A model generated the notes under the pieces. That model did not search any database and was not told the DNA's origin. It worked only from the letters and a program-made list of their open reading frames with translations. A program made the position numbers and the translations under genes. Shown piece after piece: positions 38,076 through 55,253 of a DNA stretch of 58,579 nucleotides (positions within the stretch are counted from its first letter, which is position 1; each line of letters starts with the position of its first letter). This DNA is from a virus (lineage: Duplodnaviria; Caudoviricetes): positions 1 through 58,579 of IMG/VR virus record IMGVR_UViG_3300042197_001846; one strand, 5' to 3'.

Positions 38076-40112
38076 TTAAGCGTAACGAACTGCTACTACG
38101 CCACTACCTTCATTGCTTGTTAGGCGGGTCATACCAACACGTAAGCTAGCTACTAGAACACGACGCTGATTTACTACTTCATCATCTGTGTCCATGCGCA
38201 TTGCACGATGGTTACCAACAATAAAGTTACGTGGATTTACTAAGACCATTAGTGGGTCATTAGCAGATGCACCAGTTAACTGTGCTGTAACGATAACAGG
38301 TGTATTACCAATGCTACCGATTTGACCAGTTAATAGTGTAGCACGATCGCCTACTTTATCAATTGTTTGGAAGGTGCTGTCTGCTAGTAGATCATAATAA
38401 GCTGTTGTACTTACAAATGCTACTAGTTCTGCTGGATCAAGACCCCAAGCACCTAGACTTTTACGAGCTGCAATAACATTAGCTACTGTTAGTGCACCAC
38501 CTACAGCAACTGTTGGTGAGCTTGTGCCGCTACCGTCATAATAAGCAAGACCATTAATGCCTGCAGCATATGTTGTTGATCCAACATCATTACCGATAAG
38601 CATAGCTTTGTCTAGTGTCTTAGCCATACGACGTACAATAGCGTCACGGATAATAGGTACTAGTGCAATAAGTCCATCTTCCTCTTCTTCAAACGCAACA
38701 TACTCTTTGGTTGCTAGTTTGTTGCTGCTTAGGTCGATTTCTTTTAGCGCATGTGTACGAACATCACCGCTGCTAACGCCTGTGTCAGTAGCAAACTGTG
38801 CATTTGTTACCCAAGTTGCGTTTGCATCTGTGTCTGGGTTAATAGGAATCTTCATAAATGGCTGGCTCATAGCGATTTGACGGATTGTACCGGCAACCAC
38901 TAGTCTACGGCGCATTTCTTCTTCCATGTTTAAGCTAACTTCAGTTTCCCAGTTAGCACCTGGTAGGCGAATCTTGCCACCTGCACCACTGCTGCCTACA
39001 GCACCAGCTGTACCACCGCTAGCATACTTTTGTAGGATTTCGCGACCATACTGTGTTTCTTCTAATGGTCTGCCGGTGATCTTGCTGATAAATACAGCCT
39101 TTTCTTTCTCGGCAAAAGGAACGTCGCCATCTTTTGGCTCGATAAACTGCATACGACTACGCTGTAGTGCATCTAACTCAGCACTCTTGTTTTGTAGTTG
39201 CTCTAGCTCTTTGGCTTTTTCACGAATAGCACTCTCTAAGCCCTCAATCGCACTCTTGTGCTCGTTGGCTTGATCTTCTAGGCGCTTTTCAATGTCGCTT
39301 AGTAGACGCTCTGCACCTGTGTCAACTGTTTGTACAACAGCTGGAGCAGCTGGAGCTACTGCACTAACTGCAGCTTTAATTTTTGCTTGTAGGGCTTCTT
39401 CTTCAGCAACCTTACGCTTAGCTTCTTCAGCAGCCTTTGTTTGTGCTTCTAGCACGGCTTTAGCAGTTTGCTCAGCAGCTTTAGCAGCAGCATCTGCTAG
39501 TAATTTCTCTAATTCCTTTGGATCCATATCCCATTCCTCATTTGTTGTGCTTTTTGCTGCTTTTGGGGTATCTAGCTTTTTAGCTGATTCCTTTGGTGCT
39601 GGTGCAAATTGCTGTTTAAATAACTCAAAATCTGCGGCAGTGTCAAATGCCTTGGCTAAACTAAAAAGTGTGTTTTGGTTTGCAGGTACTGAAACTACAC
39701 TGATTTCATGTAGCTCTAGTTCTTTAACTAAAAACGTTTCGGTAGCATTGTCATAGTCCGCATCACGAACTCTAAATCCTACGCTAAATGCACTTAATAT
39801 TCCCTTTTTAATCAGTTTGTATACATCACCCACTTCTCCAGGAATCTGCGCTCGAATCCACAAACCCTGATCTGTTACCTTGTGCTCAATCATTTTACCG
39901 ATTGGCATCTGATGATTGTGATAGGCTAGTATAATTGGATTTTTAAGGTAATTTTTTAATCCACTATTCCATGCTGCCATAGGGATTACGTCACCTTGCC
40001 GATCACGGTCTACTGTGCTAGCATATCCTTCAATAAAAATGCTATCATCAGACTCTGTACTAGCTGTAAACTTACTGCTTAAATAGAGTAATTTATCTAG
40101 CTTTGTATTCAT
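38076..40112 (-). CDS. Fused HK97-type prohead protease, scaffold and major capsid protein
   Basis: IEGYAST..RDRQGD...NPIILAYHNH..PIG...FSVGF...EISVVSVPAN, then a coiled coil, then an HK97-fold capsid; ATG at 40112 preceded by GGAG. Confidence 0.9.
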   Translation of the reverse strand: MNTKLDKLLYLSSKFTASTESDDSIFIEGYASTVDRDRQGDVIPMAAWNSGLKNYLKNPIILAYHNHQMPIGKMIEHKVTDQGLWIRAQIPGEVGDVYKLIKKGILSAFSVGFRVRDADYDNATETFLVKELELHEISVVSVPANQNTLFSLAKAFDTAADFELFKQQFAPAPKESAKKLDTPKAAKSTTNEEWDMDPKELEKLLADAAAKAAEQTAKAVLEAQTKAAEEAKRKVAEEEALQAKIKAAVSAVAPAAPAVVQTVDTGAERLLSDIEKRLEDQANEHKSAIEGLESAIREKAKELEQLQNKSAELDALQRSRMQFIEPKDGDVPFAEKEKAVFISKITGRPLEETQYGREILQKYASGGTAGAVGSSGAGGKIRLPGANWETEVSLNMEEEMRRRLVVAGTIRQIAMSQPFMKIPINPDTDANATWVTNAQFATDTGVSSGDVRTHALKEIDLSSNKLATKEYVAFEEEEDGLIALVPIIRDAIVRRMAKTLDKAMLIGNDVGSTTYAAGINGLAYYDGSGTSSPTVAVGGALTVANVIAARKSLGAWGLDPAELVAFVSTTAYYDLLADSTFQTIDKVGDRATLLTGQIGSIGNTPVIVTAQLTGASANDPLMVLVNPRNFIVGNHRAMRMDTDDEVVNQRRVLVASLRVGMTRLTSNEGSGVVAVRYA

Positions 40113-40113
40113 A

Positions 40114-41301
40114 TTACTCCTTTGTCGTACTAGGCCTACCACCTATCGATGGATTGGCTGCTGAACCTGCTATATTAGCAGGTATTCTTATAGTATCGCC
40201 ACCTTCTAGTTTGGCGTACCTTAATTCTTCACGGGCCTCATTAGGCGTTATAATTCCACCATTTACCAGTGTGCTGTGGTAGCTGGCCACATCTTTAAGC
40301 TCTGGCTGCAGTGCACTAATTGTACTAATTACAGGACTTAGGTCATAGCCAAAATATCGCTCTAGTGCACTGTTGTAGAGTCTAACTAGTGGTAATACGG
40401 TTTCTAGGTAGAATAGCCGCAAATTAGGCGAAATGTTTGCATTATTGCCACCTTGCAATAATATAGGCGGAATGCCTATAGCACTCATTATACGCTCACT
40501 GTGCGTGCGCATGGCTACGTCAAAATCTAGGTCACTGAAGTTTTGATCTGACAATTTATGCGGCTTCAGTCCACTATCAAGGATAATAGGTCGCTTTCCA
40601 CCCGACTTACTATTATAGCGCTGCTGCCAGTACTGTAATGTTTTCTCTTTAGCAGCTTGCGACAGTGTATTTTCTGATGTAAGCACTAGTCCAAATATAG
40701 TGCCATTGTCAAAGAACTTTTGCTGAAACTCCTGCATGCTGTAGAGTATGCTAATATTTTCCATGCAAGCTTCTAGCCTGCTAGCACCGCGATAGATGCT
40801 ATCAGCTGATAGGTCTTTAAAGTAAAATACCTCAGCTTCAGGAAAGTTTACCACTCCATTATAGCGATAGCCGCGTATGTATGTTTTACTATCAGTAATA
40901 ATTTCCACATTATTAGCTGGCAGGTGGTACATAAATACACCATCAAAGTGTATGAACGCATTGCCGTCTAACAATATATCCTTAAACAGCGCACTGCGAA
41001 AATCAACAGCTGACTGATAAGGATTAGGTCTAAAATTAAGTAGTGTTGTTAATGTCTTTTGACGTATGCCATTAACAACACCTTCGTGTACTTTATCTTT
41101 TACATCATAGTCTAAGCTAGCACAAGCATTGACCAGCATGTTAACAGATCTGTTAACACTGTCTATGGTCTTATAAGCTGTGCGAAAATTAACTATGCGG
41201 GCCTCACTGCCTATGTGAGTGCCTTCATCTAAGTGTATGCTTGTTTGGGCTGGATTTAGTTTTTCAACCACCCAACCACGTAATCTGTCCATTATTGCCA
41301 C
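40114..41301 (-). CDS. Portal protein (HK97 family, T5-like)
   Basis: LLN.RPNPYQS...DGNAF...GIITPNEARE. Confidence 0.92.
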   Translation of the reverse strand: MAIMDRLRGWVVEKLNPAQTSIHLDEGTHIGSEARIVNFRTAYKTIDSVNRSVNMLVNACASLDYDVKDKVHEGVVNGIRQKTLTTLLNFRPNPYQSAVDFRSALFKDILLDGNAFIHFDGVFMYHLPANNVEIITDSKTYIRGYRYNGVVNFPEAEVFYFKDLSADSIYRGASRLEACMENISILYSMQEFQQKFFDNGTIFGLVLTSENTLSQAAKEKTLQYWQQRYNSKSGGKRPIILDSGLKPHKLSDQNFSDLDFDVAMRTHSERIMSAIGIPPILLQGGNNANISPNLRLFYLETVLPLVRLYNSALERYFGYDLSPVISTISALQPELKDVASYHSTLVNGGIITPNEAREELRYAKLEGGDTIRIPANIAGSAANPSIGGRPSTTKE

Positions 41302-41790: not shown

Positions 41791-43080
41791 TTAGATTACA
41801 TAACTGTAAAGTGCATAACGCACTGCATCAGCCATGTGACTAAAACGATTATGCTTTGGGCGCTCACGAGTTAATCCCTCACGATCATCCCACTGATATT
41901 GATCTAGCATTGCCAGAACATGTTGACAACTGTGATGAACCTTAAATCTACCTTGCTGCACTAAGGTTTGCACATAGGCAATGCCTGGTAGTACATCTTT
42001 TTTAGCGCGTGTAGTACTTAACTCATAGTTGTAGGCTAGGTCCGCTGCAAATTGTGCAGCTGCACTATCAATAAATATAGTTTCTACCGAATATTGTTCA
42101 ACAAAACGGGTAAAGTGCTCGGCGTGCTCACGTGTAGTGCGCTCCGATTCTAGGTAGTCCTGTATACAATAAAAACAGTCAGTTGCATAATCATAGGTAA
42201 TAGTTACCCAGGCTGTTTCGTCCTTGTAACCTGGATCTAGTCCAGCTATAGTTTCGCCACGTAGATCTGGCAACTCTTCTAGCACATACTCCTGGCGGAA
42301 ACCTTCATAAATCTGACCCAAGTAGCTGGTAAAGCTGGCCATATACTCCTGCTCAAACTCTGCTTTAGGCATGCTGCGGCGTGCTTCCTCCACATCCGAC
42401 TCAGCCATCCTGGTATTTTCAGTATAATCTGCTTGTATACTCACCCACTCGGGAAAGTTGGTATCAAAGCCACGACTAAAAAACTTTGAAAACCAGTTGT
42501 TTTTACCACGCGGTGTACTAATAAATATTGCCTTGCTATTCGGCTTGTCTAGTGTAGGACGTAGCTGTACATTAAATGCTTCCTCACCACGCTCGCTCAG
42601 GGCAGCCTCATCAAATATTATAAGGTCATAACTACGCCCAACTGTACTATCCACTGTACTAATAGATCCCATGCGAATAGTTGAACCATTCGACAATTCG
42701 ATTACTTTGTCCTTAAGATTATCACGTGTTACTTCCAGGTCAAAGTGCTTGATCAATTTACGCTGTAGCTCAAACGAGATTGAACTGAGATTATAGTTTG
42801 GCGATATAATTAACACATTACAGTTGGGCACTAGGGTTACCAGCTGACCTATAACATTGGCTATGTAGGTTTTGCCTAATCGCCTGGCAAGTGCTGCACA
42901 AATAAAACGATATTGTGGGCTGTTGATAGCATTGATCAATGCAATCTGCGGACGATTGATTGTATCGTAGATCCCAAGCAAACGCAGGTAGTTGTCAATA
43001 GGCAGTTTAATAAATCGACGGTCGGCTGGAAACTCGTATATATAATCACACTCTACATCTGTTCTGCTTACTGTTAACAC
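41791..43080 (-). CDS. terL: Terminase large subunit (T5-like)
   Basis: Walker A ARRLGKT, Walker B LIIFDEAA, ISTPRGKN, nuclease motifs GLDPG and HMADAVRY. Confidence 0.95.
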   Translation of the reverse strand: MLTVSRTDVECDYIYEFPADRRFIKLPIDNYLRLLGIYDTINRPQIALINAINSPQYRFICAALARRLGKTYIANVIGQLVTLVPNCNVLIISPNYNLSSISFELQRKLIKHFDLEVTRDNLKDKVIELSNGSTIRMGSISTVDSTVGRSYDLIIFDEAALSERGEEAFNVQLRPTLDKPNSKAIFISTPRGKNNWFSKFFSRGFDTNFPEWVSIQADYTENTRMAESDVEEARRSMPKAEFEQEYMASFTSYLGQIYEGFRQEYVLEELPDLRGETIAGLDPGYKDETAWVTITYDYATDCFYCIQDYLESERTTREHAEHFTRFVEQYSVETIFIDSAAAQFAADLAYNYELSTTRAKKDVLPGIAYVQTLVQQGRFKVHHSCQHVLAMLDQYQWDDREGLTRERPKHNRFSHMADAVRYALYSYVI

Positions 43081-43556
43081 TACACACCTTCACCACTAAT
43101 TAATTTATGTATAAGCTGGCCGTACTTGGTACCATCACCACCTTCATTGATCTGCACGTTAACCTGCTTGCTGGGGCCTGGGCTACCCTGTCGGATCTTC
43201 TCCAGCTGTATTTCACGGTCTAACAAGTCCATGCTCATTTTATGTGATAAGGCTAGTAGTTCGGCAATGTCTTTTGAACTACCTACTCCCGCCTCATCTA
43301 GTTCTTGAAACTTTTGCTTGATTATGGCATCCATGGCTTGACGCATAAGAAAACGGTTGTTGTAGCCGGTGTCAAAGAATACCTGATCAATATAACCACG
43401 TACTTCACGACGAGCTAGTGTGGTTGTTACCAGTTCGGGATCAATGCTTAGTTCATGGGCAACCGCTCTGGCGTCTTGCAGTTGAAGATAGCAGTTGGCA
43501 ATTTCTAGTGCTTCTGGACTTATTTTGATGGTTTCTGCGGGCAGGTGAGTGGTCAT
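43080..43556 (-). CDS. terS: Terminase small subunit (T5-like)
   Basis: ISPE.LEIA.CYLQ...FFDTGYNNR...SSKDI; immediately upstream of terL. Confidence 0.85.
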   Translation of the reverse strand: MTTHLPAETIKISPEALEIANCYLQLQDARAVAHELSIDPELVTTTLARREVRGYIDQVFFDTGYNNRFLMRQAMDAIIKQKFQELDEAGVGSSKDIAELLALSHKMSMDLLDREIQLEKIRQGSPGPSKQVNVQINEGGDGTKYGQLIHKLISGEGV

Positions 43557-43576: not shown

Positions 43577-43606
43577 ATTGTAACACTAGTGGTGGTTTAG
43601 GGTCAA
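43577..43606 (-). promoter_or_regulatory. Putative terminase promoter TTGACC-N18-TACAAT overlapping a TGACCCTAAACC motif
   Basis: + strand ATTGTA 43577-43582 and GGTCAA 43601-43606. Confidence 0.55.
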
Positions 43607-43775
43607 GCATAGATTTTGGCACCTTAGCTTGTTTGGAAAAATTTCTTGAAGTACGCGTGTGGGAGGGCCCACCGCTATAGATTATATAATAGTCTGATAA
43701 CCGCCCCTGTCCACCTAAGTATAGCAGTAATCTTTCGGTTTTGTCAACTGCCACTCGTCGGCTGACAAACGGTAC

Positions 43776-43804
43776 TTGCTACTGCTGCTCGATAGACCTA
43801 TAAT
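43776..43804 (+). promoter_or_regulatory. Pre-early promoter TTGCTA-N17-TATAAT
   Basis: Directly upstream of the AGGAG RBS and the ATG at 43837. Confidence 0.7.
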
Positions 43805-43836
43805 AAAAACTCGATAAACAAACAGGAGTAGCTGAA

Positions 43837-44163
43837 ATGGCAACAGCCAAAGCCCCTAATTATAGCCCTGAGCAAACTGCTCAGATTGTAGAACAATACC
43901 AAGCCGGTGTTACGGTTGAGCAGATTGCCCAGACTATGGGCAGGACTGTTCGCTCAATTGTAGCGAAGCTCAGTCGTGAAAAGGTTTATATCGCTAAAGA
44001 ATATAAAACCAAGAACGGTGAAGCTCCCGTGAAAAAGGATGTTCACGCCGACTTCATCGGTGCTGCTCTCAAGCTCAGCGAGAACGATATAGAATCGTTA
44101 ACGAAGGCTAACAAGAGCGCACTTCGCGCAATCTCGGATTTTATCCGTAACTCTGCCAACTAG
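43837..44163 (+). CDS. T5 A2-like DNA-binding protein, copy 1
   Basis: NY.PEQT...Y.AG..VEQIA..MG.TVRSIVAKLSREKVY...SLTKANK; resembles T5 A2 (from memory); first gene after terS. Confidence 0.7.
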   Translation: MATAKAPNYSPEQTAQIVEQYQAGVTVEQIAQTMGRTVRSIVAKLSREKVYIAKEYKTKNGEAPVKKDVHADFIGAALKLSENDIESLTKANKSALRAISDFIRNSAN

Positions 44164-44196
44164 GGTATAGGGGGCGCAAGCCCCTATATAAATGTT

Positions 44197-44409
44197 ATGA
44201 AAAATGTAGCACTTGCCACTGATCCAAAAATTATAGCGTTCAATCGTCGAGCTGAAGTTGCCGTTGAGGAACCGTTACAGTTTTTTATTGTTCCCACTGA
44301 TTACAAAGGTTTCATGTGGCTTATAAAAAATAGAATCTTGGGCCGCAAGCTCACTGGGCCTAGCTATAATAAGCATTACAATACACTTACTGGATCAATG
44401 CAAGAATGA
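44197..44409 (+). CDS. Hypothetical protein
   Basis: 70-aa ORF after the hairpin at about 44169-44188. Confidence 0.45.
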   Translation: MKNVALATDPKIIAFNRRAEVAVEEPLQFFIVPTDYKGFMWLIKNRILGRKLTGPSYNKHYNTLTGSMQE

Positions 44410-44483
44410 GAACACTCACCCTAGCCCTGTGGCTGTACGTTATGTTTATGATAACATTCCTTGCACGCTACTGTTTCACGTGA
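44406..44483 (+). CDS. 25-aa hydrophobic peptide MRTLTLALWLYVMFMITFLARYCFT
   Basis: ATGA overlap with the upstream stop codon; one TM-like stretch; stop codon lies within parS1. Confidence 0.45.
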   Translation: MRTLTLALWLYVMFMITFLARYCFT

Positions 44484-44487
44484 AACA
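44472..44487. promoter_or_regulatory. parS: parS site 1, perfect TGTTTCACGTGAAACA
   Basis: Exact match to the canonical bacterial chromosomal parS palindrome, inside a 26-bp perfect palindrome (44467-44492). Confidence 0.8.
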
Positions 44488-44820
44488 GTAGCAGCTTATA
44501 AAAAATATACCGCTATATTTTTTATAGCGCAGGCGCCAAATTATAGCATATAATTTGCAACCGTGTCAAGCCCCAGAGCCGCCGTTTGTCGGGTAGGATC
44601 GACCGCTGGTCGGCTGATGTGTGGTAGACTGTGGGGGTATGGGTGGTAGGCAATTGTCGCTTGGGCGACATTTGACCTCAAAAATTCAGGTATACTTGTT
44701 TCTGTTGTAAGGCATGACTCTAGGCGGCCAGTAACCCCGCCTACCCTCGGATAGGGCCGATAGGGCAAGGGCAGACAAGTTAAACCTTACAACATTCTAG
44801 ACTTTATAAGGATATAGGTT

Positions 44821-45297
44821 ATGAAAAGGATAGCGATCTATGATATGGATGGCACAATCGTTTGCAGTATGCACAGGTATCGTACCATTGTTGATAACGG
44901 TATTGAGCGCATTGACCTCGACTACTGGCGTGCTAATGAATATCGCGCACTTGATGACAGTTTGTTACCACTTGCAGAACAATATAAAAACGATCTCGAT
45001 GATCCCCACTGTATTGTTGTTATTGCTACTGCCCGCATTTTGCGGAACGCTGATCGTGCATTTATTTATAGCAAACTAGGCACTCCCGATCATATCGTTA
45101 GCCGTAATGAAAATGATAACCGTTCTGGCGGTACTCTCAAGATTGAGGGACTAAAACGGATTTTCAAATTGTATAGCAATTTAGGTTATCATTTTAATGA
45201 CGCTGTATTTTATGAGGATAATGTAGCATATCTTAAAGCGGTTTGTGATTACTTTAACATTAGGGGCGTTTATGTTCCAAGCAAACAAGGACATTGA
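44821..45297 (+). CDS. HAD-superfamily phosphatase (PNK 3'-phosphatase/nucleotidase-like)
   Basis: IYDMDGTI (motif I), ATAR (II), K (III), YEDN (IV). Confidence 0.85.
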   Translation: MKRIAIYDMDGTIVCSMHRYRTIVDNGIERIDLDYWRANEYRALDDSLLPLAEQYKNDLDDPHCIVVIATARILRNADRAFIYSKLGTPDHIVSRNENDNRSGGTLKIEGLKRIFKLYSNLGYHFNDAVFYEDNVAYLKAVCDYFNIRGVYVPSKQGH

Positions 45298-45298
45298 T

Positions 45299-45469
45299 AT
45301 GGAAAATGTAGCAACCATTCGTGATAAGTTTATTGATCTTTATTATAACATTTATGGCTTTTATCCTAGCTTTGGCAGTTATAGGGATTGGAACGATCCT
45401 CAATGGCTAAATCGCATGTATGATAGCCTTTATAAAGAATATAACAGTTTACCAGAGGAATTAGTATGA
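45299..45469 (+). CDS. Hypothetical protein
   Basis: MENVATIRDKFIDLYY..., with AAGGA upstream. Confidence 0.55.
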   Translation: MENVATIRDKFIDLYYNIYGFYPSFGSYRDWNDPQWLNRMYDSLYKEYNSLPEELV

Positions 45470-45669
45470 GCGAGCAATATTGGAAAGACCTAGCCAACCG
45501 TTCTACGTTTTGGCATAAACTTGCTAGTCGCATGTTGTTAAAAAATGCAGAACGATATTTACAATGTTCTAGAAACGATATTAGTCGCGGCCACTTGGTA
45601 GGCGCTGAATTGTACCAAAAAATGGCACAGCGTAATCTTGCAATTTGGGATAGCTTGCACAAAGTTTAG
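45466..45669 (+). CDS. Hypothetical protein
   Basis: GAGG RBS and ATGA overlap with the upstream gene. Confidence 0.55.
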   Translation: MSEQYWKDLANRSTFWHKLASRMLLKNAERYLQCSRNDISRGHLVGAELYQKMAQRNLAIWDSLHKV

Positions 45670-45684
45670 GTTTCACGTGGAACA
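45669..45684. promoter_or_regulatory. parS: parS site 2, GGTTTCACGTGGAACA (reverse complement TGTTCCACGTGAAACC), plus adjacent half-site
   Basis: One mismatch to TGTTNCACGTGAAACA; GGTTCCACGT half-site at 45686-45695. Confidence 0.7.
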
Positions 45685-45917
45685 TGGTTCCACGTTATAA
45701 AAACCACACCGATATAAATTTTATATCGGTGGCGCCAAAAATTATACCATAATTTTTGCGGCCGTGTCAAGGCCTGCGGCGACCGTTCGTCGGCTGGTAG
45801 CTGCCGCTGGTCGGTCGGATGTGCGGCGGCCCCTAGCCGATGGACGGCGGCGAATTGTGGCACTATCTGGCATTTTATGGTATACTAGGGGTTGCTCAAC
45901 TTTTAAGGTTATAAATT

Positions 45918-46610
45918 ATGAAACGACAATACTTCGCTGTTCTAGATACTGAAACGACCATTAACGATACCGTTATGGATTTTGCCATTGTGGTTTGTGA
46001 CCGTCACGGCAAGATTTACAATAGTTGTAGCGTTCTAGTTCGTGAGTTCTATGATCCTGCTACACTGTTCCATGATAAAAATGCTAACGGTTTTTGGTCT
46101 AATGCTAACTTAGAGCGTCGTCGTGCTAATTATCAGAACATGCTAGATTCTGGTACACGTATGCTTGCGTCTGTAACTGCTATAAATAATTGGATCAATA
46201 AATGTATCGGTACTTATGATCCGATCCTTACTGCATACAATCTAGCTTTCGACTCTAGCAAATGCGCTAATTCTGGTATCGTTCTAGATTCTTTCACTAG
46301 CCGCTTTTGCCTTTGGCAAGCCGCTGTTGGCAATATCTGCCGTTCCAAAAAGTATAAGCGTTTTGTGCTCGACAATCATCGTTTCAATAATGCGACCGAT
46401 AAAGGTAATATGACGTTCAAGACTGATGCCGAGACTGTTGCAGGTTTTGTAACTGGTAATCTTATTACTGAGCCGCATACTGCGCTTGAAGATGCTAGAG
46501 ATTTCGAGATTCCAATCCTACAAAAAATTGTACGTTCTAAAGGTTGGCGCGATCGCATCGAACCCTATGACTGGAAAAAGTTTCAGGTAAAGGATCATTA
46601 CAATGTTTGA
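45918..46610 (+). CDS. DEDDh 3'-5' exonuclease
   Basis: VLDTETT (ExoI), AYNLAFD (ExoII), HTALEDA (ExoIII). Confidence 0.88.
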   Translation: MKRQYFAVLDTETTINDTVMDFAIVVCDRHGKIYNSCSVLVREFYDPATLFHDKNANGFWSNANLERRRANYQNMLDSGTRMLASVTAINNWINKCIGTYDPILTAYNLAFDSSKCANSGIVLDSFTSRFCLWQAAVGNICRSKKYKRFVLDNHRFNNATDKGNMTFKTDAETVAGFVTGNLITEPHTALEDARDFEIPILQKIVRSKGWRDRIEPYDWKKFQVKDHYNV

Positions 46611-46854
46611 AGCATTCGGCGTTCTAGGTTCTATACTGCTTGGGGCTTCGGCCCTGCCCCAAGCTGTCGAATCCTATCGTTCTAAAAATTCAGACGGGCT
46701 TACCTTAGGTTTTATAGCGATGTGGTGGATTGGTATGGTTTCCATGACAATCTATATCGTACCCAAGGGTGATATGATTCTTATAGCAAACTATATTGCC
46801 AATCTATTTCTTGTAACAATTATTGCGAGGTATAAATTATGGCCGATTCGTTGA
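46603..46854 (+). CDS. PQ-loop/SemiSWEET-like 3-TM protein
   Basis: G.LGS.LL...ALPQ...SYR.K.SDGLT.......W..G; three hydrophobic helices in 83 aa. Confidence 0.8.
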   Translation: MFEAFGVLGSILLGASALPQAVESYRSKNSDGLTLGFIAMWWIGMVSMTIYIVPKGDMILIANYIANLFLVTIIARYKLWPIR

Positions 46855-47228
46855 TAAAAGTTGTAACAGCCGCTGTTACCCTACACTGGACTGCTATGCA
46901 AGAATTATGGCCAGAACTAAAAAGGCATAGCGTTCCAAAAGTTAGAATTAGCAATCGCATGTATCGCACTGCGGGTTTAGCCCATTGCGAGGTGCATGAG
47001 GTAGAATTTGCTAGCAAATTCTTTAACCGTTATAAAGCTGAGATGCTTTGCGTTATTGTACCGCATGAGCTAATCCATGTTGCAGATTATATAATTAACG
47101 GCGAAGACCCTACCGACTTTTGGCATGGGCCTGATTGGCGTCGCATGATGCTAGAATATGGCTTGCCACCAAGTGCAACCCACGAATATTATATAAATAA
47201 AAACGAACCAATTGTGAGGACGTTATAG
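46839..47228 (+). CDS. SprT-like zinc metalloprotease
   Basis: SNRM.RTAG.A...VPHELIH...WHGPDWRRMM. Confidence 0.8.
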   Translation: MADSLIKVVTAAVTLHWTAMQELWPELKRHSVPKVRISNRMYRTAGLAHCEVHEVEFASKFFNRYKAEMLCVIVPHELIHVADYIINGEDPTDFWHGPDWRRMMLEYGLPPSATHEYYINKNEPIVRTL

Positions 47229-47529
47229 AAACAATAGCGGCGCAAGCCGCTATATTTTTTGCTATATCGCTCTAAGTTATAGAATTTATAGCGATGGCGC
47301 CAAAATTATGATATAATTATATCATAATTATTGTGCCCGTGTCAACCCCTTGGGGGTGCCGCTGGTCGGATGGTGTCTGCCGTTGGTCGGGTTGGGTTGC
47401 CGCTGATCCACCTGATGAATGGTAGGCCAATTGTCGCCGTGACGACAATCTACCAGGCAAACCCGTGTATAATAGATTCTGTTGCAGGGGACATGGGGTC
47501 GAATCTGCAACGGTTCTAGGAGTTATAGC

Positions 47530-47856
47530 ATGGCAGAAAAAGCCGTTAACTATACGCCTGAGCAAACTGCTAAGATTATAGCAGATTATCAGGCAGGGGT
47601 TGCCGTCGAGCAAATCGCTCAGGCAATGGGTAAAACCGTTCGTTCGATTGTAGCGAAACTTTCTCGTGAGAAAGTTTACGTTGCAAAACAGTACGTTACA
47701 AAAACTGGCGAAAAGCCTGTTAAAAAAGATGTAACGGCCGATGCGATCGGTGCGATCCTTCGCTTGTCAGAGAATGATATAGATTCTCTAACTAAGGCAA
47801 ACAAAAGCGCTCTCAAGGCGATTTTCGATGCCTTAGCAAACAGCAAACCGCTGTAA
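47530..47856 (+). CDS. T5 A2-like DNA-binding protein, copy 2
   Basis: AGGAG RBS and ATG at 47530; closely similar to 43837-44163 over its full 108 aa. Confidence 0.75.
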   Translation: MAEKAVNYTPEQTAKIIADYQAGVAVEQIAQAMGKTVRSIVAKLSREKVYVAKQYVTKTGEKPVKKDVTADAIGAILRLSENDIDSLTKANKSALKAIFDALANSKPL

Positions 47857-47909
47857 AAATCAGAGCGGCCTAAAAAGCCGCTCGTTCTAAACTCTAGAAA
47901 GGAACTGTT

Positions 47910-48224
47910 ATGGAAAAGATGACTAAAAATCAAAAGATTATCCGCAAAGATATATTGGCTTATGTGCGCGAGTGTGGCGGAATTGTTCACAGTCGCCCGC
48001 CCGTAGGCGATGAAAACGGGTTTTGCCTTGTTGCTATGCCTTGTGTGCTCAATCCACGTCATGCTAAATTTTATGACGTTGCATTTAGCTGGTGTGCTGA
48101 TAACGATAAGTTTGATCGCAAGATCGGAGAGTTCTTAGCCCTAGAGCGTTGGGTAAATCGTGAAACTACCAAGATGCCAGGTTATATAATTGATAACATG
48201 CTTGAAATGGATTTGGTAGACTAG
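47910..48224 (+). CDS. Hypothetical protein
   Basis: AAGGA RBS; followed by a terminator hairpin at about 48240-48267. Confidence 0.6.
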   Translation: MEKMTKNQKIIRKDILAYVRECGGIVHSRPPVGDENGFCLVAMPCVLNPRHAKFYDVAFSWCADNDKFDRKIGEFLALERWVNRETTKMPGYIIDNMLEMDLVD

Positions 48225-48658
48225 GGTTCTAGAAACTATAACGGCCCCCAAGCGGGCCGTTATTTTTCTGATAACGGTTATAAATTATAGAATTTGCACC
48301 GCTATAATTTTTATAGCGGCCGCGCCATTATACTAGTATAATGGCAGGCGTGTCAAGCGATTTTGCCGCCATTCATCGGCCCCTAACTGCCGCTTGTCGG
48401 GTCGGTTTTGGGTGTAATTGGGTATAGTTATGGTTATTATATTGTTATAAAAAACATAACAATCTTGCGCCAAAATTTTACCACAAAATTTTGGCCGCTG
48501 TCAAGCGATTTTGCCGCCGTTTATCGACCCTAAGCCGCCGCCTGTCGGGTAGTTTTCATAACGGTATAAAAAGCATAATCGTGCTAAATTCTATAAACCA
48601 TAACGATATAGACCCCATAACGATATAGGTTCTATAAACCAGCACACCCCTAGGTGTG

Positions 48659-48950
48659 CTGCGCCAGTGCAAAAACTCAAGTGCAAAACTTTGAGCTGGT
48701 CTGCGCCAACATTATAGTGGAAATCCTTGGGCCAAGTCAAGTAAGTTTTTCTGACCCTAAACCAGAGCAGGTTGCAAGCAGTCCCAAAAAAATTTGCCGC
48801 GGTTTAGGGTCAGGTTGCCACGACCACAAAAAATATTTACTTGCGCCAGTGCCTAATCTAGTGCAAAATCAAAATTTCTGTGGTCCTGCGCCAACATTAT
48901 AGTGCAAATCCTTGACACAAGTCAAGAGAATTTTTCTGACCCTAAACCGT
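48659..48950. repeat. 185-bp-period imperfect direct repeat (two copies)
   Basis: GCGCCAGTGC...CTGCGCCAACATTATAGTG.AAATCCTTG...AAGTCAAG...TTTTTCTGACCCTAAACC; ATTATA at 48711 and 48896. Confidence 0.85.
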
Positions 48951-49010
48951 AATAACCCACGGTCACGGGCAATAAAAAACCCTGCACAGGGCAGGGCTAT
49001 TTGTGTAGGA

Positions 49011-49331
49011 TTAAATCGATTTATCCAGTTTAGGGTCAAGTAATCGCCTGTTAAGTAAGATTAACACCGATTTATTCACCTTTTCTAGGCTTTCTAACTG
49101 ATCGCTGGGAACCCCCAATGTTTGGGCAAGTTGTTCGATATACTCCCACTTCTTTACCGGCACCTCGCCACGTTTGTTGAGGTACGTCTTTTTTTGGTAG
49201 ACACCCAAACTGGAGAGCTTGGCAATTATGCTACGGTCAGGGACGCCAAGAGTATTAGCAATCTCCAACGTAGTTGCTCCGCCTTTATATTGTTCAACAA
49301 TCTTATCTGTAATTTCTTTGGTATATTTCAT
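49011..49331 (-). CDS. A2-like DNA-binding protein, divergent copy 3
   Basis: KYT.E.T..IVEQY..G....EIA..LG...RSIIAKLS..GVY...GE.PVKK...SLEK.NKS.L. Confidence 0.7.
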   Translation of the reverse strand: MKYTKEITDKIVEQYKGGATTLEIANTLGVPDRSIIAKLSSLGVYQKKTYLNKRGEVPVKKWEYIEQLAQTLGVPSDQLESLEKVNKSVLILLNRRLLDPKLDKSI

Positions 49332-49345
49332 GGTAGTTTTTGACC

Positions 49346-50116
49346 CTAAACTGCAGCAATTTTACCAGTATTAATCTGCCAAGGCAGCAGCTCACTAATT
49401 GGTGTTTTAGCTGGTTCAACTTTTTGTCCATTAAACAATTCGCTGTCTACTAGTGGTGGTGGCATACTATCCCAGTTGTGGGGGTCTAGGATCATAGTCG
49501 ATCTGCGGTTTTTAGGATGTGCTAGCCAAATTTGACACATCATGCTCTGTAATAAGATAGTCTGGTCACCTAATTGTGTGTCCCCCACCCCATACAATTT
49601 CCAAGTACTTTCAGCTGGCCTGGTTGTACCAGCTTTGGGTCCGCTGCGATAGGCTAAACCTTGCTGTCTAATAGCTAGCAATTCTTCGTTAGTAATGTTA
49701 GGTATGTTTTGTGTTAAACTTTCATAGAGCAGTGGTTCTAGGATCCATTTAAGCTCGTGATGATCCTGCCAGTGGCTGTAGGGCTGGTTGTAGCTTTGGC
49801 GTAGTCCTAGTAAGACTAGTGGGGTAAGTTGTCCGTACTCAGGCTGTTGTGTTTGATTTTTTATTAGCAGGCTGCGGCGAACTCTGGTTAATCTGTAGAG
49901 TGTTTTGTCTAGGTCACTACTAGTATTCTTTTGCACAGTTTCTAGTGGATTGTTATAGAGTCGCCAACGACCAAAGTGTGCTACTAGTTGTGGTAGCAGC
50001 CAACTACTGTAGTTTTGCAGTGGACTATTTTCCAGGTGTTCTAAAAATTGATCGTTGCTGTAGTTAGCCCAAGTTTCTAGGCCTAGTGTGTAAATGTCTT
50101 GTTTCTTGATGTACAT
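49346..50116 (-). CDS. Conserved T5-like phage hypothetical protein
   Basis: SWLLPQL..., TPLVL..., QIW.A.P..R...MI motifs recall (from memory) a conserved T5-family early protein encoded next to the terminal repeat. Confidence 0.55.
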   Translation of the reverse strand: MYIKKQDIYTLGLETWANYSNDQFLEHLENSPLQNYSSWLLPQLVAHFGRWRLYNNPLETVQKNTSSDLDKTLYRLTRVRRSLLIKNQTQQPEYGQLTPLVLLGLRQSYNQPYSHWQDHHELKWILEPLLYESLTQNIPNITNEELLAIRQQGLAYRSGPKAGTTRPAESTWKLYGVGDTQLGDQTILLQSMMCQIWLAHPKNRRSTMILDPHNWDSMPPPLVDSELFNGQKVEPAKTPISELLPWQINTGKIAAV

Positions 50117-50513
50117 ATGTTGTAGTCGGGTTAAACCCTAGTTAGGGCTGGTTATGGGGTGGACAATTAATTAAATTAGTTTCGATTTTTAGTTTTTTAA
50201 AATTTTTTAACCGGATTTTTACTACTTAAACTCTTGTGTTGTTGACTTGACCCTAAGCTGCGTCATTCTCACTCAACTTGTAGCTACCGTCTGGCGGGAC
50301 CCCAACCCCCCCGACTGCTACAAGTTGATCCTTGCTTTAGTCAGTCAACACACATACATTAATTTTTATAATTATATATGATTATAACATGCGTCTGGTA
50401 GTGATTTCAAGTGAATTTTTTCTGTGGAGGTTTGCTATGGTTTAGGGTCAGAGGTGTTAGAAAAACAAGGAAAAACTTTTTTAGAAGGGGTAGTCTGTTT
50501 TTCTAGCGGGTTT

Positions 50514-50720
50514 TTAAAGATAGCGGTTAGTTTCTATGGTGTAGACTAAGAGTTGTGCAAATTCTGGTGTGCTCAATTCACTCTTGTAAAGTCTTAGTCC
50601 CCACTGTGTAAGGGCGGCTGCAATGGCTAGGGTGTCGTCTTGGTAGTGTATGCGTAGCTTGTCGATAAACTCACTTACGTCATCGTTTAATTCTTTTAGC
50701 TGCTTGTCGGTTAATTCCAT
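50514..50720 (-). CDS. Hypothetical protein
   Basis: 68 aa with upstream AGGA. Confidence 0.55.
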   Translation of the reverse strand: MELTDKQLKELNDDVSEFIDKLRIHYQDDTLAIAAALTQWGLRLYKSELSTPEFAQLLVYTIETNRYL

Positions 50721-50732
50721 GTTTTTCCTAGT

Positions 50733-50762
50733 AAAACAAAAGCCCGCACAAGGCGGGCTTTT
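50733..50762 (-). terminator. Rho-independent (likely bidirectional) terminator
   Basis: AAAAGCCCGC-ACAAG-GCGGGCTTTT. Confidence 0.8.
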
Positions 50763-51700
50763 GAACTGTACATGTTTTTAGTTTAATGGCGGTGGATTGC
50801 TTTTATGTAGCGCTACTACGACCACCATACATCTTTGTCTACACTCTAGCTAGTTGCGAATTAGCGTAAGTCGGTGTAGGCGATGCCACGAACATCGGCT
50901 GTTCTTAGTTGCTGTTCGGTCTTGGGTTCCAGCCAAGATATGGGCAACTAGCGCGGGTAGGGTTTTCACCTACATTCCCCACTTAAGGGATGTTTGCTTA
51001 CAAAACCGCGACTAACCCAGGCTCTGGGGTCAGGCCTTGCCATTTATTGTTGGCGCACTGCCCTGTTAGGGCATAATCAGTATTTTATACTAGCTGCGGT
51101 ATTATCTGACTATACATAATACGCTAGACCCTAAACCGGATCGGTTGCCAGGCTAGAGGGCTTATTTCTAGCACACCTTTGCTCTGAGCACGTTTGAGCT
51201 ACTGGCATATTTGTTAACGACTGTCTACCCCACAGCTCCAGTTAACTACGGCTTGTGGCATGTAACCCTGAGTTCATTATCCAACTGGGTTGGCAAGAGG
51301 AATAGCTCAAGGACTGTAGTGGGTGGCCGCCATGCACTGTGGCAGAATCGGCTCCACTGGTTTCTAACTCTCGTGTTAGATAACGCATAACTACGTATAT
51401 GCTACGGTAACAGGTCTTTTGGTTAACCCCTATAACTGTTAACAAACTAGGGGGCTGGTTCCTTTAGGGTGGTTAGCAGCTTCCACCATAATGTATATCC
51501 GTTCCGCAGCAGGTCAGCTACGCAAGCTCGTTGGCCGCAGATTTCAACACATTTGTATAACCACCAAAAGGCATGGGGTCAAATCAGCAGTTATACAAAT
51601 AGGTTGAGGTGGGTCTGTGTTAAGGGTAAATTCAACACAGATTAAGAACTTATCCAACAGATTAGTGTTGGCCCTGGTTCGCCCTAAACTGTCACTCAAT
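50763..51700 (-). ncRNA. Candidate large structured ncRNA A (~940 nt)
   Basis: Bounded by promoter 51707-51735 and terminator 50733-50762; no credible ORF; many stems. Confidence 0.6.
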
Positions 51701-51714
51701 AATAATATTATACA

Positions 51715-51909
51715 CTACGGGGACTCTTGTTTCAAGTGAATATTTTTAATTGCCCCTAGGTCTAGCAGTGTTTCGATTACAGTTTGTGGTAGCCCGCTAA
51801 TTGGGCCCACATAGTCTGGCAGTCCATAGCCCTGCCAATATTTACAGTTACTGCCAGTTAATTCTACCAAACCCTTGCCAACTTCAACTTCTAGCGTCAT
51901 CATTGACAT
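51715..51909 (-). CDS. Hypothetical protein
   Basis: GGAGG RBS before ATG at 51909; has its own promoter. Confidence 0.55.
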   Translation of the reverse strand: MSMMTLEVEVGKGLVELTGSNCKYWQGYGLPDYVGPISGLPQTVIETLLDLGAIKNIHLKQESP

Positions 51910-51982
51910 GTGTTGTTCCTCCAGATCAATAATAATATTATACACTGTTGGGCTGGCCGTTTCAAGTAAAAATTTTTAGTGT

Positions 51983-52102
51983 TTATAAGAACCACAGCTT
52001 AATGTGGTAAATGGCTAGCATAACCGTGGTAAATATAGCAGCTAAGGCTACTAGTAGTAAGTAGGTAATAGCCCAGCGTTTATAGTATTCGCTAGCGTTC
52101 AT
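51983..52102 (-). CDS. Small membrane protein (39 aa)
   Basis: MNASEYYKRWAITYLLLVALAAIFTTVMLAIYHIKLWFL; ATGA overlap with the upstream gene. Confidence 0.45.
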   Translation of the reverse strand: MNASEYYKRWAITYLLLVALAAIFTTVMLAIYHIKLWFL

Positions 52103-52377
52103 GTTTCGATAAAGTTATAGAAGTTAATGATACTGTCCACACTATTAGCCCAACGATCAAATTCATTGAGAGGACAGCTAATATCTACAAGGAAGTCTGG
52201 ATATGCCCAGTAACGAAAACGGTACAGCCTATTACCACGCTTAGCCATTGCACCTAACTTGAAGAAGTCACGGTCAACCTTAAAACCCTTACGCTTTAGC
52301 ATAGTCTTAAATTGGCTAGCACTCATGCCACTGAGTTGATCTCGGCTAGGCTTCTTTGCAGTATACTTGAATCTCAT
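52099..52377 (-). CDS. Hypothetical basic protein
   Basis: TAAGGAG RBS; 92 aa. Confidence 0.6.
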   Translation of the reverse strand: MRFKYTAKKPSRDQLSGMSASQFKTMLKRKGFKVDRDFFKLGAMAKRGNRLYRFRYWAYPDFLVDISCPLNEFDRWANSVDSIINFYNFIET

Positions 52378-52674
52378 AGGTACTCCTTATAATTTGCTAT
52401 TTGTTTAGTGCTATCGTGCAAATTTAGACATATGGTAGCTAACCAGTCATAGCCGATGCAGTTATTTCAGGATTCGTCTCCGGCCGATTGAACCCGAATA
52501 GCTATAGCGTCCTATAGCGATACCTTGATAACACTAAACAAATAGGGTTAGAGGGAGTACCGCGGCTAAGTCATAGCTTAGCCTAATAACAGTTGGTTGT
52601 ACTCTCTGGCGATTGTTCTCTAACACAATAATAATATTATACAGACTTCTGTCTGACAAATCAAGTGAATATTT

Positions 52675-53274
52675 CTAGTCTTTATAGTTTACCAAAACTT
52701 GAAGGCAATCCCACTGGCCATATGTGAATTGCAGGGTACGGTTGTTGATAGTAACATCAAACCCCTCACCATTATGCCACTCACACACTTCCATAAAATC
52801 CGTAGGACTAGCATGATGGCAGTATGCCTTAAGTTCAGCAAATTTAGCCTTACGTGTATACACTTCAATGGTCATTGTAGACTCCAAAGTGTTGTTTGAT
52901 GTAGTCAATGCCTTCTATGTGCGGCGCTACCGCAATAACTTCTAGTACCGTAAGCTGTACCAGCCTGTTGATAAATTGTACCTGTGTTTGCCAACTATTG
53001 CTATTACCGCTAGGAAATGCTGCTGTTAGTTCTGCTGCCTTATTCCACAACTGTTCAACATTTTTATTCATAGGTAATTCTCAACACTGTAGTATTCATC
53101 AAAGGCTAGGTCTATACTATGTCCACAGTACGCCCAAACAATCTCAGCAGATTCATCATAGCTCATCATCTGCTCTTCTGCGTGAGCTGTATCTTCTGCC
53201 TTACATACAAATGGCAGTGGCTCGTCTAGGAAATTTTGACCGTCGAACCTATATAACACAACGTAATCTTTCAT
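52675..53274 (-). CDS. Three small overlapping hypothetical early genes (53068-53274, 52865-53071, 52675-~52878)
   Basis: Downstream of the promoter at 53299, with GAGGAG RBS and coupled start/stop overlaps. Confidence 0.55.
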
Positions 53275-53442
53275 TGCCGCTCCTCACATTATATAAATAT
53301 TATACGCGGGTTAGGCACGCAGTTCAAGAGAATATTTTCTATTTAGCCGAATAGGATGGCCAATATGAGTGCAAGTACTAGTAGGACAAAAACTATGGTA
53401 CGCTTGTAGCCGTGGTTGTCGTGATCCATATTTAATTACCCG

Positions 53443-53652
53443 TTAAAAATAAAATATTAGGTATATGAGTAGGACTAGCGTTGGTATGGCTAGGAGCAGT
53501 AATCCCCAGATTTGTCTGTGGATCATTTCCTGCTCGTAGAGCTCAATCTCTTGGGGGTTAAGCGTTTGCCTAACCTGTTTAGGCAGTTCACTAAAGCCTG
53601 TGAAGAATAGTACCAGACCCAAAACCGTAATAATCGCTAGTAGTATACTCAT
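53443..53652 (-). CDS. Small 2-TM membrane protein
   Basis: Two hydrophobic segments in 69 aa. Confidence 0.55.
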   Translation of the reverse strand: MSILLAIITVLGLVLFFTGFSELPKQVRQTLNPQEIELYEQEMIHRQIWGLLLLAIPTLVLLIYLIFYF

Positions 53653-54064
53653 ATGCGCTCAAGCTGCCAATTATTGCAAGTACCACGAATGCCGTCATCA
53701 TACTCTACTAGTACATTGCCCCAAAAGCTCTCCGGTCCGTCATAGTGTAACCATTGCTTGATAACTGTAGCCACCATACCATTTGGACCTACTAAGACCT
53801 TAGTACCACTAGTAAACTTTGCAGTTTGACCACTACTATCTATCTTACAAGTGCAAGCACTAAACTCCTCACACTCGTCGTCTATTTGTAAGAAGTCCCA
53901 GTCAGGGCATAAGTGTTTATACAGTGCCATAGACACGCTCCAACAAAACCTGTTCAGCTGCTTTAAGTGCAGCGTTCCAACTAGGTGTGTCGTATGGATC
54001 GCCGTCTGCGCCAACGCCCGAATATCCGCGTAGATCATCTAGTACGTCAAGCACAGCCTTGAGT

Positions 54065-54307
54065 TCAACAATCTGGGTCATAGCTCATCCACTCATCGTA
54101 TTCACTAGGCTCATAAACACTACTATCAATATCGCTAGTAAAGTCGATGGCATCACCAAACTCGTCGTAGACATGGCAATCGTATTGTGTTGGATCTGCA
54201 TCTGCATGCCACCTAGCGAACTCCAATCTAGCCTCGTAAAGGTAATCAACCTCAAACTCATCAACAACGGCACTAGTCAAGCTGTTAACAACTTTACACT
54301 TATACAT
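54065..54307 (-). CDS. Acidic hypothetical protein
   Basis: GGAG RBS before ATG at 54307 (MYKCKVVN...YDPDC). Confidence 0.55.
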   Translation of the reverse strand: MYKCKVVNSLTSAVVDEFEVDYLYEARLEFARWHADADPTQYDCHVYDEFGDAIDFTSDIDSSVYEPSEYDEWMSYDPDC

Positions 54308-54320
54308 TTGTTCTCCAGAC

Positions 54321-54353
54321 AAAAATGGCAGCCAAGTGGCTGCCAAAGAAAAA
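54321..54353 (-). terminator. Rho-independent terminator
   Basis: TGGCAGCC-ACTT-GGCTGCCA followed by TTTTT on the minus strand. Confidence 0.7.
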
Positions 54354-55253
54354 CCATACAAAAGCTGATTACTATTCCTCACCTTTTGGGCGCTACACTA
54401 CATGGCTAGCTATGCTTGTATCGAACCCTAATCAGCTTTTGTATGGCTACCGGTTACAAAATCCGGCGTTACACTTTCGGAGTAACTGTTCTACCTATCC
54501 CGCTACCCTACTTCGTTTAAGACTCGCCGCCTTTATACACGCTGATAGCCACGTGTTATGATATTGCTATCATATTCAAACACATTTGAACCTTTCTTCT
54601 GTGCTCAGACACAATCTCCCATCTAGAGTGGGCGTGGGGTATGTGCTTGAATATGATACCAGTCCCTAAACTGGATCATATTGTCTTTTTACTCTAGGAC
54701 GACAGTCCGCAAGTCTCAAATAGCCCTATGCGTAGTCCACCATCACTCGCATATTTTAGTTGACGGGACTTTCACCCGCCTCGACATTGGCCGCCTAGCC
54801 ACTAGGGAAATGTGACAGCAAGCTTATCGGGCCTTATTATCCTTACCCTAAACCGCGGCAGGTGATAGTATTGAGGCTATCAGCGTCAACCTTGTGGGTT
54901 TTGGGTTTCGCTGGAGTTGCACCAGCTCATCAGAGGATTTAGTTAGCTACCACTCCCACATGGCCCTAACTTGAGCAGTTACTCTGTCCATACCTTAGTC
55001 GGGGTAAGGTACGCCCCGTTACCGTTTTACCCTAAACCTGGATGAATGGCCCAGTGGGAGGTCTGGCAACTAACCTAAAGCCTCTAACGCTAGCTTTATC
55101 GCGCTCGGCCATTGGGTATGGCCGAGATTAGTTAGTACAGTCAGTGGTCGCTACAATGCACATTTTGTGTAATATATAAATATTTATTTAGTGTGGCAAA
55201 ATGTCATTTAAAGCTGTGGGCCTTGTCAGGCTTTACTTTCCTCACTGACTATA
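54354..55253 (-). ncRNA. Candidate large structured ncRNA B (~900 nt)
   Basis: Bounded by promoter 55260-55288 and terminator 54321-54353; no credible minus-strand ORF; 12-20-bp long-range inverted repeats. Confidence 0.65.

Follow-up and report, generated by a model that had tools for sequence, protein, structure and literature searches.

Chromosomal-type parS sites beside the terminase end of an uncultivated, distantly T5-like siphophage as candidate loading sites for host ParB

The stretch of DNA analyzed here, called the window throughout, is a complete virus record of IMG/VR (IMGVR_UViG_3300042197_001846; 58,579 bp, classed linear, CheckV completeness 56%) which carries, close to the gene for its small terminase subunit, two palindromic sequences resembling parS, the site bound by the bacterial chromosome segregation protein ParB. 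Site 1 (44467-44492) consists of the 16-mer TGTTTCACGTGAAACA at 44472-44487 embedded in a 26-bp perfect palindrome, GCTACTGTTTCACGTGAAACAGTAGC, and site 2 (45669-45694) of GGTTTCACGTGGAACA at 45669-45684, with 2 mismatches, and the half-site GTTCCACG 2 nt on, at 45687-45694. Against the consensus of chromosomal-type parS, given as TGTTNCACGTGAAACA in the excerpted text of PMC7022226, site 1 agrees at 16 of 16 positions and site 2 at 14 of 16. When the window was searched for the 16-mer at up to 2 mismatches, exactly these two matches were obtained, and 100 dinucleotide-preserving shuffles of the window gave a mean of 0.00 matches and a largest count of 0. Further, the octamer GTTYCACG occurs seven times in the window vs. 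1.61 expected, a number reached by none of the 100 shuffles, and five of the seven octamers fall within the two sites. Both the exact 16-mer within its palindrome and the second site with its half-site, as described in the original prediction made from the letters alone, are therefore real.

The sites lie on the early side of the genome, which begins beyond the small terminase gene terS (43080-43556, minus strand; PHROG 3802, E 1e-34) on the side opposite to the structural module, and where small plus-strand genes, among them those of a PQ-loop protein and an SprT-like protein, run rightward from 43837. Site 1 stands at the end of an operon whose first gene encodes a 108-aa helix-turn-helix (HTH) protein (43837-44163, plus; PHROG 323), a paralog of which (124 aa) is found at 47482-47856. 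The TGA stop (44481-44483) of a hypothetical 25-aa hydrophobic open reading frame (ORF; 44406-44483, plus), which is without family match and whose ATG overlaps the stop of a 70-aa ORF at 44197-44409, is located inside site 1. A dmp-like HAD phosphatase gene (158 aa; 44821-45297, plus; PHROG 415) has one site on each side. The first base of site 2 is also the last of the TAG that closes a 67-aa ORF (45466-45669, plus), which is 97% identical in the two relatives G002 and G003 and gave zero matches to PHROG and Pfam, and the gene downstream of site 2 encodes a predicted DEDDh-type exonuclease of RNase-H fold (230 aa; 45918-46610, plus). Thus, the placement originally noted holds: each site is found at a gene's stop codon, overlapping the TGA at site 1 and abutting the TAG at site 2, just before a cassette of hairpin and promoter.

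On the right of both sites lie an AT-rich hairpin and then a regulatory cassette that is repeated at about 44496, 45695, 47278 and 48285, together with partial copies. Read on the plus strand, the cassette comprises the AT-rich hairpin, GCGCCAA, a leftward sigma-70-type promoter, ~100 nt of GC-rich repeats, a palindrome and a rightward promoter-like element. The hairpins next to the sites, one directly right of site 1 (44496-44530, minus) and one to the right of site 2 (45703-45731, minus), carry a T-run and are terminator-like. Behind them stand predicted promoters of perfect consensus (12/12): the one at 44540-44569 (minus; TTGACA, an 18-nt spacer and TG-TATAAT) is directed leftward to the hairpin and site 1, and the one at 45741-45770 (minus) aims at site 2. 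Two more minus-strand promoters, at 47316-47345 and 48327-48356, also score 12/12, the four being mostly TG-extended, and a further four score 11/12 (43718-43747, 48475-48504, 48711-48740 and 48896-48925). The leftward promoters run opposite to the genes and into the AT hairpin and T-run a few nt downstream, an arrangement which, judged from the DNA, would yield very short RNAs (about 35-75 nt) or trap RNA polymerase. The parS sites lie ~53-57 nt from the inferred leftward start, just past the AT hairpin, the center of site 1 being ~53 nt away.

To follow the sites among relatives, IMG/VR was searched with the dmp-like protein, which gave 64 distinct loci, and with the terS protein, which gave 410 relatives; the best 80 of these 410 were used, and in 48 of the 80 the early side extends for 1500 nt or more. 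The two sets of loci have contigs in common. Of the 64 dmp loci, 43 have the core GTT[TC]CAC[GA]TG[AG]AAC, in the same two places flanking dmp, and of the 48 terS loci 33 have the strict core at least once, where every site is on the early side, 718-4824 nt from terS. In the clade of the window this 14-15 bp core reads GTTYCACGTGRAAC(A). Across the loci it stands in 65 unique 46-nt contexts forming 27 flank clusters, a comparison that selects on the core and is informative for the flanks only, and most flank positions carry 0.1-0.6 bit of information. Only the base right behind the core stands out; it is an A in 26 of the 27 clusters and corresponds to position 16 of parS. By context, the core takes the form GTTTCACGTGAAAC in 24 cases, GTTTCACGTGGAAC in 20, GTTCCACGTGGAAC in 11, GTTCCACGTGAAAC in 5 and the broken GTTTCACATGAAAC in 5, and the single variable position of the half-site (T/C, with A/G opposite) coincides with the N at position 5 of the consensus. 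According to the excerpted text of PMC7022226, the C/G form is the parS of Pseudomonas and Myxococcus, and the half-sites GTTCCAC and GTTTCAC have been reported to be bound by ParB in several species.

The surroundings of the core are far less constant. In many relatives the perfect palindrome is the 14-bp core only, with a 5-bp stem, and the 26-28-bp extension seen in the window is confined to one context. Three loci (L004, L025 and L028) have a second full site 17 bp away in place of the window's half-site, the 8.5-kb locus of one relative contains as many as 5 sites, and the sites have varying genes upstream of them. Because the core is constant in 27 flank contexts while the palindrome is often only 14 bp long, it is the bases of parS that are kept and not the strength of a hairpin, a sequence pattern of the kind left by a protein-binding site and unlike that of a pairing constraint. 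Whether relatives would retain the hairpin and lose the parS bases had been named beforehand as the test of the original prediction; in the loci examined here the bases are retained.

Five large relatives were then scanned for the core at up to 1 mismatch, and every site found had 0 mismatches. In G001 (102,184 bp; CheckV 96%) the two ends adjoin, a PQ-loop gene at the end continuing to the SprT and HTH genes at the start, and the contig is effectively the whole genome in collapsed form; its lone core site lies between the dmp-like and exonuclease-like genes. G002 (82 kb; CheckV 78%) and G003 (78 kb; CheckV 74%) have 2 core sites each, and a reversed-pattern control gave 1 match in each of these two. 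The sites, one or two per near-complete genome, are thus confined to a single early region beside terS, with none elsewhere.

The original prediction also held that the window has neither parA nor parB, and it proposed a search for parB beyond the window. The profiles HTH_ParB (PF17762) and parB_part (TIGR00180) gave 0 matches in G000-G003, as did ParA AAA_31 (PF13614) and the tyrosine integrase profiles, and ParB_N (PF02195) gave 0 matches in G000-G005. As far as these profiles tell, this bears out the absence of both genes from the window and extends it to the 96%-complete 102-kb relative. As a positive control, a 312-aa ORF of an unrelated virus record (G058) matched PF02195 and TIGR00180, so those two profiles work on records of this kind; phage P1, used as another control, had no PF02195 match and was uninformative. 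The parA and parB genes on the same replicon that make up a self-contained ParABS module were not found in G000-G003 by these profiles. Instead, with the integrase, ParB and ParA profiles unmatched, the combination found is that of a virulent phage which carries host-type parS in the absence of a parB match.

Several observations weigh against reading the sites as parS, in addition to the selection on the core mentioned above. By our own rough estimate, a look-elsewhere correction weakens the significance of the exact match, since there are many well-known palindromes that might have turned up and several palindromes are conserved in the phage. The palindrome is broken in 5 of the 65 contexts, which have CACATG. 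Of the 64 dmp loci 21 lack the core, as do 15 of the 48 terS loci and 6 of 8 loci found in metagenome-assembled genomes (MAGs) of GTDB, and the large relatives G004 (90 kb; CheckV 86%) and G005 (96 kb; CheckV 90%) have 0 core sites. No site was found in 5 cultured T5-like phages, namely four Vibrio phages and Pectobacterium phage DU_PP_V; Vibrio has ParAB1. Given this patchy distribution, the element is, as far as its occurrence in these genomes tells, accessory and not essential. Comparison of gene content between the parS-plus genomes (G000-G003) and the parS-minus G004 and G005 produced dozens of candidates and no discrimination.

The same balance sheet contains what speaks for a purely structural function, in which the hairpins would serve as 3'-end or terminator elements or as buffers between convergent transcription, the cassette would spread by recombination, and the identity with parS would be coincidental, with no ParB involved. 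The strongest point in its favor is that in cassettes 3 and 4 the slot of parS is filled by an ordinary GC hairpin with a T-run (47234-47253 and, likewise, 48238-48263), and in more distant relatives the slot holds unrelated perfect palindromes. Moreover, the RNA folds of the sites are far stabler than those of shuffles on both strands (z = -4.6 to -6.1), the fold of site 2 favors a 9-bp hairpin made with the half-site, and in some relatives this hairpin is followed by the T-run TTATGTTTTTT, which makes it a borderline terminator there. Mobility of the cassette is indicated too, as contigs of two metatranscriptome runs join cassettes to one another (45771>44578, 48295>45738 and 47294>45738), which points to related genomes holding the cassette modules in other orders and to cassette-mediated shuffling.

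Nevertheless, a terminator scan called the adjacent AT hairpins (minus) and the hairpins of cassettes 3 and 4, and neither parS site. Site 1 is followed by AGCTTATAAAAAA, with a T-run on neither strand. A need for pairing would permit any compensated sequence, yet only parS and its natural variants are seen, and the bases stay fixed over the 27 flank contexts even where the stem is down to 5 bp; by our own arithmetic, any one 14-bp palindrome would spell parS by chance in about 1 of 10^4 cases. We consider an explanation by hairpins alone to be unlikely. Transcription across the region is of limited help here: contigs from 4 metatranscriptome runs (X15, X16, X17 and X20) cover relatives of most of 43.7-48.3 kb, and two of them span site 1 while one ends at 44492, in data from which strand, ends and level are unreadable and in which DNA is possibly present.

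If a protein reads the sites, it could also be one encoded by the phage and unrelated to ParB, such as the HTH paralogs of 108 and 124 aa or a small protein that lacks annotation, for which the sites would be operators or boundaries. Two HTH paralogs in the region, the operon of the first ending at site 1, would suit such an arrangement, and the tandem full sites 17 bp apart and the extra half-sites resemble operator arrays. The HTH protein is, however, also encoded by the site-less G004 and G005 (48-53% identity). In Foldseek, no ParB-like chain was found among the 50 matches listed for the HTH model, all of which had E >= 0.34 and the resemblance of which was, weakly, to bipartite transposase or LuxR-type HTH domains; against sequences of the PDB the protein gave weak generic matches only, none of them ParB-like, and against deposited phages it gave no match. 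From one relative to another the sites have different genes upstream, and a phage binder would have to converge on the exact host centromere including its natural variants, for which reasons we regard this explanation as quite improbable.

A third possibility is that the core is chiefly a place where related phages exchange gene modules by crossing over, either through short homology or because a site-specific enzyme recognizes it. The sequence on either side of the core does change abruptly and independently among relatives, cassette-to-cassette joints are seen in other samples, and in G004 and G005 the dmp-like and exonuclease-like genes are adjacent, with a gap of 60-66 nt and neither cassette nor site between them. 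This would leave the identity with a bacterial centromere unexplained, 14 bp is short for homologous exchange, and no integrase was found and no other recombinase was identified beside the sites. As the chief function of the core, exchange therefore seems to us very improbable, and it is at any rate compatible with, and not exclusive of, binding by host ParB.

Some further features of the region accompany the cassettes. GCGCCAA stands between the AT hairpin and the leftward -10 box in all copies (44531-44539, 45732-45740, 47297-47305, 48320-48327, 48468-48476, 48703-48711 and 48888-48896). Between the back-to-back promoters there are 2-3 GC-rich direct repeats CCGC-N5/6-TCGG per cassette (families D3, D4 and D16; 44570-44650, 45771-45830, 47346-47410, 48357-48410 and 48505-48556), which are candidate operators for the HTH paralogs. 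A dispersed motif, GACCCTAAACC / GTTTAGGGTC, is found on both strands of the early region from 43595 to 58005 (families D9, D11, D13, D14 and D17), with examples at 48753, 48938, 49342, 51127, 53616 and 57992 and in inverse orientation at 43595, 48802, 49028 and 50440. The 230-aa protein encoded next to site 2 has no match in Pfam, but its homologs in metagenomes form 1576 clusters. Its DTETT and HTALED motifs are invariant, and its confident AF2 model (pLDDT 91.5) of RNase-H fold weakly resembles, in Foldseek, RuvC, Pop2 and the exonuclease domain of Pol II (best E 1.1e-3); the protein is probably a DEDDh exonuclease paired with the dmp-like gene.

The phage to which the sites belong is recognizable from its structural module, that of a siphovirus, which occupies 3-43556 of the window on the minus strand, starts leftward at terS and includes terL, portal, tail tube and a combined prohead protease/major head protein ORF as well as a 1739-aa tape measure protein, a 2052-aa J-like protein and a 3480-aa collagen-like fiber. 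Its TerL is 48% identical to that of Vibrio T5-like phages and its head ORF 33-37% identical to the Demerecviridae head protein, and megablast and blastn of the window against deposited phages gave zero DNA matches. For these reasons the window belongs, on sequence grounds, to an uncultivated siphophage which is T5-like at a distance only, so that the original designation 'T5-like' is upheld by TerL and head similarity as a remote kinship and not as a close one. As side observations, the N-terminal part of the 688-aa head ORF (38076-40142, minus) matches prohead protease and the ORF also matches major head protein, vs. two annotated genes for these proteins in cultured T5-like phages. A 542-aa tail protein (840-2468, minus) lies in DNA of 51.5% GC (profile 1001-2000) vs. 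roughly 40% across most of the window, a composition that suggests recent acquisition; a scan of GTDB genomes did not find relatives of it.

The original prediction further placed the sites in pre-early, first-injected DNA, by analogy with T5. In T5, dmp opens the terminal repeat, and the right repeat begins 3 kb past terS, after pb5, llp and four small membrane ORFs; the order in the window (terS, divergent promoters, small ORFs, dmp) resembles this junction, although dmp is on the opposite strand as compared to T5. The dmp homology itself is weak, T5 Dmp searched against the window giving E 4e-7 and the dmp-like protein aligning by tblastn to the deoxynucleoside-5'-monophosphatase genes of T5-like phages at 33-36% identity over 52-61% of the query. 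T5 A1 had no match in G000-G003 and G005, and neither A1 nor A2 had one at E <= 1 in G000-G005, a result that leaves room for very divergent homologs. DnaA boxes number 18 in the window vs. 18.3 expected and are unclustered, and the paired boxes proposed to stop injection are not present. With synteny to the right end of T5 and a dmp homolog on the one side, and with the opposite strand of dmp, undetectable A1 and A2 and unenriched DnaA boxes on the other, to call the region pre-early and first-injected is a reasonable guess.

As to habitat, sampled words of the window region were found at 0.42-0.48 in 12 DNA runs of 7 studies (the best holder's study left out), and the holding runs are labelled freshwater, aquatic, lagoon or aquaculture metagenomes, or simply metagenome. 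Alignment of the exonuclease against GTDB genomes yielded the 8 MAG loci referred to above (L300-L307), one of them on a 103-kb contig, in MAGs labelled Saccharibacteria, 'bacterium', Flavobacteriaceae, Nanopelagicaceae, Gammaproteobacteria, Bdellovibrionales, Thiobacillus and Caulobacteraceae. We rejected these labels as evidence of the host, another point that does not help a host-dependent reading, since they name unrelated lineages without consistency and the phage contigs are likely mis-binned; those MAGs, in other words, are likely contaminated by L300-L307. The excerpted text of PMC7022226 reports par genes to be missing only from Enterobacteriaceae, Pasteurellaceae and Mycoplasmataceae, which supports the earlier statement that Enterobacteriaceae lack them, and because so few families are named there an aquatic host with ParABS is likely.

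Considering the known systems, the closest likeness is to the virulent Bacillus phages phi29 and Nf, which carry host Spo0J-type parS, five of them in phi29, with parS and Spo0J implicated in segregating the phage genome into the prespore (excerpts of PMC2731898 and PMC9437464). There, too, a virulent phage carries host-type parS and the segregation protein of the host is reported to be used on its genome. On the other hand, phi29 is a 19-kb podovirus, whereas the phages in the clade of the window are siphophages whose genomes measure ~100 kb or more and whose packaging and head genes are T5-like; a near-complete genome among them has no more than 1-2 sites, and these lie where transcription units end. 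Moreover, the trapping of the phi29 genome in the spore needs a sporulating host, which would be unexpected for a relative of freshwater Gammaproteobacteria phages. Since host-type parS was already known in virulent phages from phi29 and Nf, the finding is less new than was originally assumed; what is new is its occurrence in a very different and environmentally abundant phage group. In the collection of openly licensed PMC and bioRxiv full text that was searched we found no chromosomal-type parS described in T5-like or other lytic Gram-negative phages.

Other comparisons are looser. To the centromere of chromosomal ParABS the window is linked by the 16/16 match and by the same natural variants (the N at position 5, GTTCCACGTGGAAC and half-sites), the difference being that the phage site is an orphan, on a replicon without a ParB or ParA match or an origin context. 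The plasmid prophages P1 and N15 have ParA and ParB genes of their own and site sequences peculiar to them; they share with the window centromere sites on a phage genome and differ from its clade, which has no ParA or ParB match and whose site is the chromosomal consensus. Davison's proposal that DnaA boxes in the first-step-transfer DNA of T5 bind host DnaA and stop injection (excerpt of 10.1101/866236) likewise involves sites for a host origin-region protein in first-entering DNA, within a repeat-rich untranslated stretch; it is a proposal only and concerns another protein and another site, and in the clade of the window DnaA boxes are unenriched and A1/A2 undetected. Finally, virulent phages of Alphaproteobacteria keep host CtrA sites, in what has been called 'lytic deferment' (excerpt of PMC9437464), and so also retain sites for a host cell-cycle protein, CtrA being a transcription factor acting at promoters and ParB a clamp that binds centromeres.

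Viral DNA carrying the 16-mer is not confined to this clade. The exact 16-mer was found in at least 119 other IMG/VR stretches; tblastx of the window against the 119 parS-bearing stretches listed identified none as related, the window's own relatives not being among those listed, and PF02195 gave 0 matches in 50 of these records, a result of little weight since they are mostly small fragments. At least 13 of the stretches have three or more cores. Among them, L152, with 5 core sites, codes for a head protein and a packaging ATPase as well as for a phi29-like upper collar connector, and L152, L166, L192, L210, L216, L251 and others are 8-17 kb long, have a GC fraction of 0.37-0.39 and carry 3-5 parS cores spread along them. 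Because of the collar connector of L152, these small multi-core contigs are probably uncultivated phi29-type phages with the parS feature already published for that type. A different case is L208 / G058 (110,897 bp, direct terminal repeats), an unrelated large virus with the exact 16-mer 27 nt from the locus start, probably the contig start, and its own 312-aa ParB_N protein at 19.5-19.8 kb.

Cumulatively, we favor the view that the sites are orphan parS of chromosomal type on which host ParB nucleates, and we put the probability of such binding at roughly 0.55; to the related proposition that selection keeps the GTTYCACGTGRAAC(A) sites in an abundant aquatic clade of virulent, distantly T5-like siphophages we give the same value. 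Both judgments rest on the sequences compared here, and from them we infer the ParB-family binder, its origin in the host and every downstream effect. The sites lie where the small early transcription units surrounding the dmp-like and exonuclease-like genes come to an end, next to the terminase side of the genome, and host chromosomal ParB would nucleate on them as soon as the DNA is inside the cell. Less firmly than binding itself, we suggest that ParB-CTP clamps may then spread across the dmp-like/exonuclease-like early module, and that ParB may tie the phage DNA to the ParABS/SMC positioning machinery of the host in a form of hitch-hiking analogous to that of phi29, by which an arrested genome might be able to last in cells that grow slowly. 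Alternatively, ParB could act as a roadblock or insulator ~50 nt downstream of the leftward promoters and shield the upstream operon, doing the job that GC terminators would do in cassettes 3 and 4.

The more specific scenario is doubtful, and we offer it tentatively: in aquatic, non-sporulating hosts, the terminase-proximal and possibly first-entering orphan sites of this T5-related virulent clade may load ParB-CTP clamps of the host that hold, position, silence or carry the DNA, perhaps together with ParA or SMC. An arrested genome could, for example, be kept segregating with a slow-growing host until lysis is possible.

If the sites are merely hairpins that happen to spell parS, they are a curiosity. 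If host ParB truly loads on them, a very common group of aquatic lytic phages would depend on, or manipulate, the chromosome segregation of its host, where the link between phages and ParB has so far been documented only for spore entrapment by phi29-type phages. The phi29-Spo0J principle would then extend to a wholly different type of phage and to hosts without spores, with ParB as a phage dependency factor. It would also provide a handle on how large linear phage genomes are held and positioned early in infection, and a natural "orphan parS" with which to study the loading of ParB near a free DNA end.

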